Shown piece by piece: positions 7,506-10,021 of a stretch of DNA of 64,000 nt. The stretch lies in the NCBI RefSeq assembly GCF_055900595.2, contig NZ_CM148325.1; one strand, written 5' to 3'. The notes below the pieces were generated by a model. It did no database searches. It worked only from the letters and a program-made list of their open reading frames with translations, and had not been told where the DNA came from. The translations under genes were made by a program, and so were the position numbers. The stretch's first letter is position 1; the number at the start of each line of letters is the position of its first letter.

Positions 7506-7649
7506 GTGAAAAAGTTTCGATGGGTCGTTCTGGTTGTCGTGGTGTTGGCTTGCTTGCTGCTTTGGGCGCAGGTATTCAACATGATGTGCGATCAGGATGT
7601 ACAATTTTTCAGCGGAATTTGTGCCATTAACCAGTTTATCCCGTGGTGA
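7506..7649 (+). CDS. mgrB: PhoQ feedback inhibitor MgrB (47 aa)
   Basis: Translated by hand: GTG start with GGAG 6 nt upstream; [47 protein letters not shown]; absent from track because it is under 60 aa. Confidence 0.9.
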
Positions 7650-7723: not shown

Positions 7724-8011
7724 ATGAACGAAGTTGTAAATTCAGGCGTGATGAACATTGCGTCTTTGGTTGTATCGGTGGTGGTTCTTCTTCTCGGGCT
7801 CATCTTGTGGTTTTTTATCAATCGTGCCAGTTCACGAACTAACGAACAGATTGAACTGCTTGAGGCGTTGCTGGATCAGCAAAAACGTCAAAATGCACTG
7901 TTACGTCGTTTGTGCGAAGCAAACGAACCTGAGAAAGAAGATAAAAAGACCGTTGAGAGTCAAAAATCGGTTGAAGACGAAGATATTATTCGTCTGGTCG
8001 CCGAACGGTAA
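7724..8011 (+). CDS. yebO: small membrane protein YebO
   Basis: 95-aa ORF MNEVVNSGVMNIASLVVSVVVLLLGLILWFFINR... Confidence 0.85.
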   Translation: MNEVVNSGVMNIASLVVSVVVLLLGLILWFFINRASSRTNEQIELLEALLDQQKRQNALLRRLCEANEPEKEDKKTVESQKSVEDEDIIRLVAER

Positions 8012-8680
8012 TCCTTCCTCAATCTTGAGTAACCCCGTCGTTGAAGGGTTACTCAATTCATCCTGATTATACGCACTGTCATGGTGCAACTGCTTCAAAT
8101 TAAAACTCTGGTCTGACTTCAAATAATTATCATATTATTTATTTGCGTAACGGGATATCAGAAAAAGATATTTAGCCCATTAATTTATTAGGATGTTTAC
8201 ATCGGATTTGTGATTAAGCGTGGTATTATTTATTAGCGAAACGTTTCTCTCTTGATTTTTTTGCGCATTCATCAATTTTTCTTATTTTAAATTTACAATA
8301 CCTTTGGCGATTGACTTCTCTTTGGGGTGATTGATAGCCGTTAACTGACTGTTTTATGAGAAAAAGTGATATAACTTTTTATTCATTGCATAGCAGAAAA
8401 TGTGATATTGCACGCACTATGTAATAACTTCTCCCATTGGCCTGGAACAACTGAACTTATTGAACTATGTTAGAAAATACGTCAGTTTAAGTATCTGCCT
8501 GAACTGGCAAGGTTAAGCACAATGATATATCGGCGCGTATTCCGTTGCATAAGTGTGCAAAAAAAGTGGAAGACGTATCGAGATTTGTGCGTCTGATCGA
8601 GACATGTTTAAAAATGGCTTGCCATAATTAACGTTGTATGTGATAACAGATTTCGGGTTAAACGAGGTACAGTTCTGTTT

Positions 8681-8824
8681 ATGTGTGGCATTTTCAGTAA
8701 AGAAGTCCTGAGTAAACACGTTGACGTTGAATACCGCTTCTCTGCCGAGCCTTATATTGGTGCCTCATGCAGTAATGTGTCAGTTTTATCTATGTTATGC
8801 CTGCGGGCGAAGAAAACAATCTAA
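8681..8824 (+). CDS. yobF: small protein YobF (47 aa)
   Basis: Translated by hand: [47 protein letters not shown]; immediately upstream of cspC; absent from track (under 60 aa). Confidence 0.85.
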
Positions 8825-8836
8825 GGAATTTTTCAA

Positions 8837-9046
8837 ATGGCAAAGATTAAAGGTCAGGTTAAGTGGTTCAACGAGTCTAAAGGTTTTGGCTTCATCACTC
8901 CGGCTGATGGCAGCAAAGACGTGTTCGTACACTTCTCCGCTATCCAGGGTAATGGCTTCAAAACTCTGGCTGAAGGTCAGAACGTTGAGTTCGAAATTCA
9001 GGACGGCCAGAAAGGTCCGGCAGCTGTTAACGTAACAGCTATCTGA
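8837..9046 (+). CDS. cspC: cold-shock-domain protein CspC
   Basis: 69-aa [40 protein letters not shown]..., canonical CSD RNP motifs. Confidence 0.97.
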
Positions 9047-9091
9047 TCGAATCCACTGATCTGAAGTGTGAAGACACTTCAATCTCGCTAT

Positions 9092-9118
9092 AAAGCCTCG
9101 TCGAATGCGAGGCTTTTT
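9092..9118 (+). terminator. intrinsic terminator downstream of cspC
   Basis: stem aaagcctcg / cgaggcttt followed by a 5-T run. Confidence 0.8.
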
Positions 9119-9211
9119 ACTTTGCTTTATCTTCGCTCCTGGCATTCGGATATTTGCCCGCCGCGTGATTCGCGTTACACTTGCGGACTTTAGTATCCTG
9201 CCGGAGTTGTC

Positions 9212-10021
9212 ATGTCGTTTTCCTGTCCACTTTGCCATCAGCCTCTCTCGCGTGAAAAAAACAGCTATATCTGTCCCCAGCGACATCAGTTTGATATGGC
9301 GAAAGAAGGGTATGTCAACCTGTTGCCTGTTCAGCATAAACGATCTCGTGATCCGGGCGACAGCGCGGAAATGATGCAAGCACGACGCGCATTCTTAGAT
9401 GCCGGACATTATCAGCCGCTGCGTGATGCAATTGTTGCCCAACTGCGGGAACAGCTTGATGAAACGGCCACGGCGGTGCTGGATATCGGCTGTGGTGAAG
9501 GGTATTACACACACGCATTTGCCGATGCGTTGCCCGAAATCACCACGTTTGGTCTGGATGTCTCGAAGGTGGCGATCAAAGCTGCGGCAAAACGCTATCC
9601 GCAGGTCACTTTTTGTGTCGCTTCCAGTCACCGTTTGCCGTTTGCCGATGCCAGCATGAACGCCATTATTCGCATCTATGCGCCGTGTAAAGCAGAAGAA
9701 TTAGCGCGCGTAGTGAAGCCCGGCGGTTGGATCATTACAGCTACGCCGGGACCGCGACATTTGATGGAGCTGAAGGGGCTGATTTACAATGAAGTACATC
9801 TTCATGCACCTCATGCAGAACAACTGGAAGGTTTTACATTACAGCAGAGTGATGAGTTGTGTTATCCGATGCGTCTTCGCGGTGACGAAGCCGTCGCGTT
9901 ATTGCAGATGACGCCGTTTGCCTGGCGAGCGAAGCCAGAAGTCTGGCAAACGCTGGCAGCAAAAGAAGTGTTTGACTGCCAGACGGACTTTAATATTCAC
10001 CTCTGGCAGCGTTCTTATTAA
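9212..10021 (+). CDS. rlmA: 23S rRNA (guanine745-N1)-methyltransferase RlmA
   Basis: 269-aa [31 protein letters not shown]... (zinc-ribbon N-terminus, SAM-MTase fold motif DIGCGEGYY). Confidence 0.95.

Follow-up and report, generated by a model that had tools for sequence, protein, structure and literature searches.

The yebO-yobF spacer

The window analysed here is a 64,000-nucleotide stretch of E. coli DNA (contig NZ_CM148325.1, assembly GCF_055900595.2) in which the stop of yebO at position 8011 and the start of yobF at position 8681 enclose a non-coding gap of 669 bp ahead of the yobF-cspC operon. The genes and features that frame this gap are:

8012..8680, no strand: yebO-yobF intergenic spacer, 669 bp, 35.4% G+C, unannotated
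8025..8056, plus strand: hairpin 3' of yebO with an 11-bp stem, 14 nt past the yebO stop codon
8681..8824, plus strand: yobF, 47 amino acids, Pfam DUF2527/DUF2627
8837..9046, plus strand: cspC, 69 amino acids
9092..9116, plus strand: intrinsic terminator of yobF-cspC

The initial annotation had described about 670 bp of AT-rich, non-coding sequence before yobF, and the composition bears this out, with a G+C content of 35.4% compared to 49.5% for the window as a whole and a minimum of 27% at 8100-8299. Its view of the entire span 8012-8836 as untranslated holds for 8012-8680 and fails for the remainder, since the yobF gene (8681-8824) lies inside that span. No annotated feature was found in the spacer of K-12 or in that of 40 sampled genomes spread across the 5,421 matching E. 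coli genomes. The K-12 region is the same locus, with 98.7% identity to the window from yebO to cspC, a mapped start site and -35 box identical to those of the window, and a spacer (IG1905616_1906284) that is likewise 669-670 bp long and contains several RNA polymerase peaks and H-NS binding. On the K-12 chromosome the spacer occupies 1907592-1908260 of the minus strand, where window positions 8478, 8633 and 8655/6 correspond to 1907794, 1907639 and 1907616/7. The window strain and K-12 differ at 13 spacer positions, none of them of substance; one corresponds to R15K in the 22-codon open reading frame (ORF) considered below and another falls in a -35-like hexamer region upstream.

The hairpin at 8025-8056 has a predicted free energy of -17.8 kcal/mol and a z-score of -2.85. 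It probably forms the end of the mgrB-yebO transcript, as a 3'-end or terminator hairpin, but is followed by AAUUCAUCC instead of a U tract, and it was not called by our terminator scan. In other genera, a different hairpin is found at the same place after yebO.

Conserved promoters upstream of yobF

Alignment of 77 Enterobacteriaceae sequences revealed near-neutral spacer DNA with five conserved islands in it. All 76 other loci that possess both yebO and yobF share 83-94% identity with the window over the last 98 bp of the spacer, and their remaining spacer sequence aligns just in patches. Among 10 E. coli strains, we found no variable sites in 8543-8680 compared to 36 in 8012-8542. A position-weight scan of the 77 aligned sequences identified promoters that are conserved in position and whose starts are predicted near 8478, 8634 and 8655, the latter two of which coincide with published 5' ends. 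The features of this part of the spacer are:

8443..8471, plus strand: predicted distal sigma70-type promoter, -35 TGGAAC (8443-8448), 17-nt spacer, -10 TATGTT (8466-8471)
8547..8559, no strand: conserved island 4, GCATAAGTGTGCA (consensus GCATAAnTGTGCA), from the alignment
8583..8604, no strand: weak CRP-like 22-mer ATTTGTGCGTCTGATCGAGACA, read from the sequence, more than 90% conserved
8599..8628, plus strand: middle promoter, -35 GAGACA, 18-nt spacer, extended -10 TGcCATAAT, 5' end at 8633
8619..8647, plus strand: proximal promoter yobFp, -35 TTGCCA (8619-8624), 17-nt spacer, extended -10 TGtGATAAC (8639-8647)
8664..8667, plus strand: yobF Shine-Dalgarno sequence GAGG, in the short leader

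The last 98 bp thus carry two overlapping extended -10 sigma70 promoters. The proximal one, yobFp, scores 7.1 bits, and the K-12 yobF start has been mapped to -25 by 454 sequencing (8 reads) and to -26 by 5' RACE, with a -35 box of GGCTTGCCA (PMC2760140 supplement); these starts correspond to G8655 and G8656 of the window. The same TTGCCA-17-GATAAC promoter is listed in PMC3946193, which also reports more than two peaks of binding by RpoD holoenzyme and an H-NS flag for the 670-bp spacer. Together, the mapped start and the multiple holoenzyme peaks substantiate the suggestion that this stretch serves as a promoter region for yobF-cspC (PMC2760140, PMC3946193). For the middle promoter, the 5' end at 8633 is the position at which the primer of a Salmonella yobF::sfgfp fusion begins (GTTGTATGTGATAAC). 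Promoters named yobFp1 and yobFp2 (RegulonDB/EcoCyc) and cspCp8 are cited in the literature, and an RpoN/NtrC binding peak at 1,905,652 in older K-12 coordinates falls at about position 8644 of the window. We found no yobF or cspC entries in the ROSE and Shigella M90T supplements and no coordinates within the spacer range in the Cappable-seq supplement, and for this locus the Salmonella ChIP-exo supplement contains gene expression rows only.

The CRP-like 22-mer is centred approximately 62 bp upstream of the mapped yobF start, and its inner portion (8586-8601) reads TGTGC-N6-TCGAG against TGTGA-N6-TCACA, a match of 4/5 in the left half and 2/5 in the right; genomic SELEX lists yobF among the predicted targets of CRP (PMC3105977). 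Downstream of the start, the small RNA OxyS has been proposed to pair within the short yobF leader (PMC10965054), and CyaR, like OxyS, is reported to act on this leader.

The distal promoter, that of island 3, lies about 180 bp upstream of the two promoters of the proximal region and has a family consensus of CTGGAC...GCTATGGT, that is, CTGGAC, 17 nt and (C)TATGGT. It scores 5.7 bits in the window, the prediction is conserved in position across species, and its hexamers are free of intervening indels in nearly all of the 77 species. Its predicted start near 8478 would give a leader of about 203 nt, and predicted leader lengths across species have a mode of 204 nt, which is also the Salmonella value. 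A start coordinate of 1893683 in S. Typhimurium 4/74 (CP002487), which arithmetic on transposon coordinates puts 181 nt or more upstream of yobF, fits this prediction; the Salmonella evidence is nonetheless ambiguous, given that the table points to this distance while the GFP fusion in the same paper begins 48 nt upstream. Based on these observations, we infer that the distal promoter is probably used in E. coli, where it would add a transcript with a leader of approximately 203 nt. A sigma54 promoter at CTGGAAC was considered and rejected, the -12 GC being missing on reading the sequence.

Alternative readings of the spacer

The initial annotation had also raised the prospect of a long structured leader. 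In its strongest form, this reading holds that the spacer is mainly a long 5' leader, thermosensor- or riboswitch-like, on a transcript starting far upstream of yobF, which we consider unlikely. The conserved distal promoter, the conserved length of its predicted leader and the Salmonella start coordinate all speak for it, as do the heat induction of YobF, reported as post-transcriptional, and the folding of the putative long leader, whose variable part of 105 nt does somewhat better than shuffles (mean z -1.31, with -2.3 for the window sequence) and may hold a structured element. Yet the K-12 leader, as mapped, is only about 25 nt long, and the invariant last 98 nt show no folding beyond that of shuffled sequence (mean z +0.16; these leader z-scores derive from mononucleotide shuffles, which overstate significance somewhat) and have a layout that fits two promoters with documented starts. 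RNAalifold analysis of the leaders of 77 species gave an energy of -10.8 kcal/mol, a covariation contribution of -0.24 and compensatory change in none of the 24 predicted pairs, and even if it were made, the long leader would span just 203 of the 669 bp. A further point in favour of this reading is a cspA-family match that lies downstream:

8662..9121, plus strand: match to Rfam RF01766 (whole cspA mRNA model), 136 bits (gathering score 78)

This match is situated outside the AT-rich region and vanishes without the coding sequence: when 8012-8836 was scanned alone, no cspA match appeared at E values up to 10 and Rfam returned only a spurious plant snoRNA match (E 1.7). Because the match begins 6-7 nt past the mapped start site, yobF sits where a cspA-type 5' UTR would. 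Like the cspA promoter, yobFp combines a -35 TTGCCA with an extended -10; positions 1-25 of the cspA mRNA model align to the yobF 5' end with high posterior probability, such that the 5' end coincides with the start of the model, and both leaders precede a gene for a cold-shock domain. However, cspA has a 159-nt leader, whereas in yobF-cspC the translated yobF ORF takes up that space. For E. coli, the idea of a long structured leader is therefore not upheld, there being a mapped leader of about 25 nt, no Rfam match of its own and no compensatory pairs.

A second possibility, to which we assign a low probability, is that the islands are part of a transcript in the spacer that has escaped annotation, either a small RNA or an antisense RNA. 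Sigma70-dependent transcripts were detected on in vitro run-off arrays at probe sets IG1905616_1906284-f and c2230, both of which report the window minus strand (c2230 being the antisense of cspC), and weak, positionally conserved minus-strand promoter predictions occur near 8625 and 8268. This run-off evidence was, however, obtained only in vitro, where H-NS and Rho are lacking. Moreover, 8012-8680 has no terminator-like site on either strand and no Rfam match, and the islands measure just 10-35 bp with unalignable sequence between them, a pattern that does not resemble a conserved small-RNA gene.

The initial annotation further drew attention to a 22-codon ORF, which overlaps one of the islands:

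8356..8424, plus strand: 22-codon ORF MRKSDITFYSLHSRKCDIARTM, ATG start; chance ORF overlapping conserved DNA island 2
8378..8409, no strand: conserved island 2, consensus TTTATGCATTA.A..GCATAAAAAGTGATAT, conserved at the DNA level

The ATG ORF is present at exactly these coordinates and, as had been remarked, is not preceded by a Shine-Dalgarno sequence, the 25 nt upstream (TTGATAGCCGTTAACTGACTGTTTT) carrying no GGAG, GAGG or AGGA. Its proposed identity as yobI is mistaken. The K-12 gene yobI (b4677) is located at 1946115-1946180 beside ruvA, between ruvA and yebB and hence outside the window, and encodes MYIFITHFFTEYVILKYLLPI, a sequence unrelated to that of the ORF; size is the only likeness between the two (21 versus 22 amino acids). 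By contrast, the ORF sits in the yebO-yobF spacer and corresponds to K-12 1907848-1907916, approximately 38 kb from yobI.

We conclude that the ORF is an accident of AT-rich sequence and not a small protein gene. The spacer contains five ATG ORFs of at least 22 codons compared to a mean of 3.5 in base-shuffled spacers, 28% of which reach five. The start codon is lost in E. albertii (ATA for ATG), two other Escherichia species have TAA as codon 3, and all three have a 1-nt indel within the ORF region. Substitutions in the Escherichia comparison are distributed 16:17:14 over the three codon positions and thus show no codon periodicity, and within E. coli there are two non-synonymous changes and one synonymous change at a site density equal to that of the rest of the spacer; on coding constraint, then, its standing as a gene fails. 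The frame is intact in just 2 of the 77 aligned sequences, and the sole conserved part of the ORF is the island 2 DNA motif, which is also conserved where the frame is closed. Comparison with the annotated small proteins of K-12, whose annotation includes curated ones, yielded no match at 8356-8424, and Pfam has no family for the 22-residue peptide. Neither variant of the ORF was found by exact look-up in a collection of 15 billion proteins, although 22 amino acids may be below the reach of gene callers, and the locus is unmentioned in the text of the Weaver et al. 2019 preprint. That the ORF nevertheless encodes a real product, a small protein or leader peptide that is young and specific to E. 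coli, is in our estimation very improbable. Such a reading could appeal to its ATG start, to the many E. coli small proteins that long went unannotated and to the intact frame in all 10 sampled E. coli strains, but the last of these is expected at 2-3% divergence. Mini-ORFs within islands 2 and 3 were likewise rejected, as their starts and lengths vary between species. The 22-codon frame should accordingly stay off small-protein lists and should not be confused with yobI.

Least probable of all is that the long spacer represents the decayed remnant of an MBL-fold hydrolase gene that other genera carry between yebO and yobF. Although 32 of the 76 loci have a 1.45-1.58-kb gap with such a gene (about 333 amino acids, PF12706) and a faint C-terminal trace (E 0.4-0.8) exists in two short Enterobacter cloacae-complex loci (L052 and L073), tblastn with the MBL protein finds nothing in the spacer (the best whole-window matches lie elsewhere, with E above 4) and gene-bearing species retain, upstream of yobF, approximately 520 bp of non-coding sequence in which the same islands occur, which indicates that the E. 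coli spacer is mostly that regulatory module.

An RbsR-type palindrome and the control of yobF-cspC

Two further conserved elements lie in the upstream part of the spacer:

8233..8252, no strand: palindrome TTAGCGAAACGTTTCTCTCT, candidate RbsR-type LacI-family operator by similarity to the rbsD operator
8268..8295, plus strand: conserved block GTCAT...TTTCATTATTTTGGTGCA (family consensus), promoter-like, predicted start near 8285-8294

The palindrome matches the perfect palindrome TCAGCGAAACGTTTCGCTGA upstream of K-12 rbsD (L084:821-840) at 16 of 20 positions. The rbs operator, which is bound by the LacI/GalR-family regulator RbsR, has a central CG, as does the window palindrome, and within the core the two agree at 15 of 16 bases (AGCGAAACGTTTCGCT in rbs, AGCGAAACGTTTCTCT at 8235-8250). 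Conservation of the core CGAAACGTTT is at least 90%, and at the homologous position 67 of the 77 species retain 12/16 or better, a level that just five other 16-mers reach among the 38,885 scanned. The 8268-8295 block, which has degenerated in E. coli, keeps an almost constant spacing from the palindrome; the weak, conserved plus-strand promoter prediction with a start near 8285-8294 would place the palindrome centre at about -44 to -52, and a weak minus-strand prediction would place it at about +26. In contrast to the rbs operator, the window palindrome has an imperfect right half-site and is located approximately 440 bp upstream of yobF, off the start of any documented promoter. Two of the 10 E. 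coli strains have a mutated central C in the palindrome, the natural variant being C8242T, and the palindrome is lost in six Klebsiella- or Raoultella-type loci (L009, L048, L056, L062, L069 and L082). As for other regulators, a PurR-type box fits worse than the rbsD operator (10-11/16 versus 15/16). A Cra site matches at only 7-8 of 16 positions, and the main text of the Cra ChIP-exo paper makes no mention of one here. Our literature search found no report of this palindrome or of RbsR binding at yobF or cspC. Taken together, these data make it conceivable, if somewhat doubtful, that 8233-8252 is a working operator for RbsR or a close LacI-family paralogue within an upstream promoter module of yobF-cspC.

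Overall, we consider it highly probable that 8012-8680 is the transcriptional control region of the yobF-cspC operon and neither a gene nor a long leader. Read from the left, the hairpin that probably closes the mgrB-yebO transcript is followed by approximately 200 bp of fast-evolving, AT-rich DNA that is reported to bind H-NS, and then by a module of about 475 bp that is common to Enterobacteriaceae and consists of near-neutral sequence with the five islands. The almost invariant last 98 bp carry the two overlapping promoters, with starts at 8633 (Salmonella) and 8655/8656 (K-12), and the short leader contains a ribosome-binding site, the reported target of OxyS and CyaR; another conserved promoter, some 180 bp upstream of these two, probably contributes the transcript with the longer leader. 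The more distant islands may be protein-binding sites or weaker promoters, one of them the RbsR-type palindrome, and the 22-codon ORF arose by accident in AT-rich sequence and overlaps island 2.

For the most part, then, the spacer is ordinary and largely known, a control region with several promoters that has already been described for the yobF-cspC stress operon. The positive result of our analysis is a conservation map of this unusually long spacer, with three positionally conserved promoters and an invariant 98-bp core, and the RbsR-type palindrome is the part of that map for which prior reports were not found in our search. Loss of CspC is a recurrent adaptive route, taken by E. coli in colonies as they age (PMC13162491) and by Salmonella growing on succinate (PMC10965054), and the upstream control elements of yobF-cspC are therefore of interest. 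Should the palindrome indeed be an operator, it and the distal promoter near 8478 would imply that no fewer than three or four conserved promoters, arrayed in tandem, drive yobF-cspC, of which only the proximal ones have been documented so far. Such an operator would also tie production of the RNA chaperone CspC to ribose or nucleoside availability and would link rbsR and cspC, which were separate hits of one Salmonella succinate-utilisation screen (PMC10965054).

The yebO-yobF spacer and its 22-codon frame

From yebO to cspC, the window, which is from E. coli, differs from K-12 MG1655 at 17 of 1,323 positions, and this segment was found in 5,411 of 5,426 complete E. coli genomes. The genes and features of the locus are as follows.

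7506-7649, +, mgrB
7724-8011, +, yebO
8012-8680, yebO-yobF gap (669 bp)
8681-8824, +, yobF
8837-9046, +, cspC
9092-9116, +, terminator downstream of cspC
9212-10021, +, rlmA

The AT-rich non-coding stretch that the initial annotation placed before yobF is real: it spans 669 unannotated bp with a G+C content of 35.4%, compared to 49.5% for the window, and drops to 27% at 8100-8299. Its description of 8012-8836 as untranslated does not hold throughout, because that span takes in yobF itself. K-12 RefSeq, which includes curated small-protein genes, has no annotation between yebO and yobF; the same interval was without any annotation in 40 E. coli genomes sampled evenly down a ranking of 5,421 matching genomes.

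The ORF itself (MRKSDITFYSLHSRKCDIARTM, 8356-8424) was confirmed to lack a Shine-Dalgarno sequence, with none found within 25 nt 5' of its start. The gap contains five ATG-initiated ORFs that are 22 or more codons long, a count within the range of shuffled sequences (mean 3.5, with 28% of shuffles reaching five), so the ORF is not above chance expectation. In all three other Escherichia species recovered (loci L003, L004 from E. albertii, and L005), the homologous segment carries a 1-nt indel and either its start is ATA or its third codon is TAA. Codon periodicity, which the initial annotation had proposed as a check, is absent: substitutions in the Escherichia comparison fall 16:17:14 on codon positions 1, 2 and 3. 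A start codon without an internal stop is found in the homologous segment of only 2 of 77 Enterobacteriaceae sequences. The frame is unbroken in each of ten diverse E. coli strains, with two non-synonymous changes and one synonymous change, and variable sites are as dense in it as elsewhere in the gap, which has 36 in total. Both peptide variants are missing from a collection of 15 billion proteins, 22 residues being perhaps below gene-caller size, and the peptide has no Pfam match. Conservation within the ORF is confined to 8378-8409, a DNA motif that is retained in species where the frame is closed. The chance-level count, the broken frame in relatives and the lack of codon periodicity speak against a genuine gene. 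Identity with yobI, which had been suggested, is wrong: yobI lies 38 kb away and outside the window, between ruvA and yebB (K-12 1946115-1946180), and encodes a different product, MYIFITHFFTEYVILKYLLPI. Judged by these sequence comparisons, the frame arose by chance and is not yobI.

Conserved islands across the Enterobacteriaceae

A scan for YebO yielded 80 loci, one per species, of which 76 have yebO, yobF and cspC together. The gap measures 590-761 bp in Escherichia, Salmonella, Citrobacter, Klebsiella and some Enterobacter, and 1,455-1,582 bp in 32 other loci that include other Enterobacter, Lelliottia, Kosakonia, Buttiauxella and Cedecea. These long-gap loci (L010, L020, L027, L028, L058, L078 and 26 more) carry a gene of approximately 333 aa (PF12706, MBL fold) 3' of yebO and keep about 520 bp of non-coding DNA 5' of yobF. 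Escherichia, Salmonella, Citrobacter and Klebsiella lack this gene at the locus, and the E. coli gap holds no trace of it; a faint C-terminal remnant is present in the E. cloacae-complex loci L052 and L073.

By BLASTN, the final 98 bp of the gap (8583-8680) are 83-94% identical to the window in every locus, and the remainder aligns in patches only. An alignment of 77 sequences over the last 520 bp of the gap resolved five islands.

8236-8246 and 8268-8295, island I1, CGAAACGTTT more than 90% conserved, then consensus TTTCATTATTTTGGTGCA
8378-8409, island I2, consensus TTTATGCATTA.A..GCATAAAAAGTGATAT
8442-8478, island I3, consensus CTGGAC...TTGAGCTATGGTAAAAAAG
8547-8559, island I4, consensus GCATAAnTGTGCA
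8583-8680, island I5, near-invariant

In the stretches between islands, Escherichia species share an identity of 0.43-0.79 per 30-bp bin, compared to 0.64-0.83 at four-fold degenerate sites in the genes on either side, indicating that most of the gap evolves near neutrality. Among the ten E. coli strains, the 138 bp at 8543-8680 contain no variable site and the preceding 531 bp contain all 36. Locus L003, a species representative listed as E. coli (strain SCPM-O-B-8794), shares just 76% identity with the window across the gap and 85% across rlmA, and is nearer to L005 (Escherichia sp. E1V33); from its sequence, it probably belongs to a cryptic clade of Escherichia and not to E. coli proper.

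Promoters and leaders of yobF-cspC

The gap is already known as a control region for yobF-cspC that holds several promoters and is bound by H-NS, which bears out the promoter region proposed in the initial annotation. Mendoza-Vargas et al. placed the K-12 yobF start at -25 by 454 sequencing (8 reads) and at -26 by directed 5' RACE, with the -35 box GGCTTGCCA (PMC2760140 supplement). In the window this start is G8655/G8656, 3' of TTGCCA (8619-8624), a 17-nt spacer and TGtGATAAC (8639-8647), and Shimada et al. list TTGCCA-17-GATAAC for the yebO-yobF spacer with H-NS flagged, and record more than two RpoD-holoenzyme peaks across this 670-bp interval (PMC3946193). An RpoN/NtrC binding peak at 1,905,652 in older K-12 coordinates (PMC8743547) falls at approximately 8644, given an offset of 1,976 from older to current coordinates set from the probe-set name IG1905616_1906284. 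In addition, yobF is among the predicted CRP targets (PMC3105977), yobFp1, yobFp2 and cspCp8 are named promoters cited in PMC13162491, the yobF leader is acted on by OxyS (PMC10965054) and CyaR (PMC5861431), and heat induction of YobF has been called post-transcriptional (PMC11429745).

We scored sigma70 -35/-10 pairs in each species and projected the predicted starts onto the alignment. At 4 bits, positionally conserved plus-strand starts lie at about 8655, 8634 and 8478; weaker ones lie at about 8285/8294, 8407 and 8494, and minus-strand predictions at about 8625 and 8268. The first is the mapped K-12 start. The second corresponds to GAGACA, 18 nt and TGcCATAAT, and nearly coincides with 8633, the first base of the Salmonella yobF 5' UTR cloned in a GFP fusion (the primer reads ...ATGCAT/GTTGTATGTGATAAC, the base after the stroke being 8633). 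That two of the three strongest predictions match documented 5' ends lends some weight to the third. This distal site, in island I3, consists of TGGAAC (8443-8448), exactly 17 nt and TATGTT (8466-8471), with the family consensus TGGACG-17-TATGGT and a C at -13; conservation ends a few bases 3' of the predicted start, and the leader that it would imply is conserved in length (mode 204 nt) and variable in sequence.

In Table 1 of a Salmonella study the start site is 1893683, the transposon insertions 1893511 and 1893502 are assigned to the 5'-UTR, and a further insertion, 1893137, is placed "in cspC". With gene spacing taken from the Salmonella locus L006, these three statements would fit only a start 182-390 nt 5' of the yobF ATG, and a start at the predicted 204 nt would put each coordinate in its tabulated place. 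Such a start would conflict with the 48-nt GFP fusion unless both starts are used.

Several other features were noted. At 8342-8375, four Escherichia species share 91% identity, with conservation stopping at the genus, and the segment includes an extended -10 close to consensus (TGaTATAAC in the window; E. albertii has TGATATAAT). This may represent an additional promoter peculiar to the genus, which would start at about 8382, inside the chance ORF. A hairpin with an 11-bp stem and no U tract (8025-8056, z -2.85) lies 14 nt 3' of the yebO stop, and at the corresponding position other genera, Citrobacter and Salmonella among them, carry an unrelated one. In-vitro run-off arrays recorded a sigma70-dependent minus-strand signal in the gap (8012-8680) and a sigma70-favoured transcript for c2230 (PMC3141248), a 194-aa ORF antisense to cspC (8795-9379, minus strand), which suggests an antisense transcript across the yobF-cspC operon.

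The initial annotation had also envisaged a long structured leader. Given the start at -25/-26, the mapped E. coli leader is about 25 nt rather than hundreds, so this proposal fails for the mapped transcript and could apply only to a possible second one, with a leader of about 203 nt, from the predicted distal promoter. Across 77 putative long leaders, RNAalifold returned 24 pairs and no compensatory changes; as the pairs sit in invariant sequence, this result is uninformative rather than negative. Scored against mononucleotide shuffles, folding of the invariant 98 nt does not exceed chance (mean z +0.16) and that of the first 105 nt, which vary, is somewhat better (mean z -1.31; z below -2 in 32% of species; window z -2.3), and many species have a differing, species-specific hairpin directly after the predicted distal start. 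A stabilising 5' hairpin in the distal transcript is possible but unproven. The Rfam cspA model RF01766, which covers the entire cspA mRNA, matches 8662-9121 (136 bits; gathering score 78), and 8012-8836 with coding sequence taken out has no Rfam match. Because this alignment begins just past the mapped start (6-7 nt 3' of it) and runs through cspC, yobF occupies the place of a cspA-type leader: where cspA has a 159-nt regulatory leader, there is here a translated ORF.

An RbsR-type palindrome in island I1

Island I1 overlaps a palindrome, TTAGCGAAACGTTTCTCTCT (8233-8252). It matches at 16 of 20 positions, and at 15 of 16 in the core, the perfect palindrome TCAGCGAAACGTTTCGCTGA located 12-31 nt 5' of the K-12 rbsD ATG, presumably the operator of rbs that RbsR binds (Mauzy and Hermodson 1992, as cited in PMC10965054). 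A fit of at least 12/16 occurs at the homologous place in 67 of 77 Enterobacteriaceae, amid otherwise diverging DNA, and in only five other 16-mers among 38,885 scanned. Alternative assignments fare worse than the 15/16 of the rbsD core: the Cra consensus fits at 7-8/16 only and a PurR-type box at 10-11/16. The palindrome is lost in six Klebsiella-/Raoultella-type loci (L009, L048, L056, L062, L069 and L082) and its central CG carries C8242T in two of ten E. coli strains, which argues against a strict requirement for it. The literature searched contains no report linking RbsR to yobF-cspC; the two are co-mentioned only in a Salmonella succinate study and its preprint, as separate hits, and that study proposes that RbsR acts via RpoS (PMC10965054). 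The conserved putative RbsR-type palindrome, together with the distal promoter module, is the one lead here worth an experiment.
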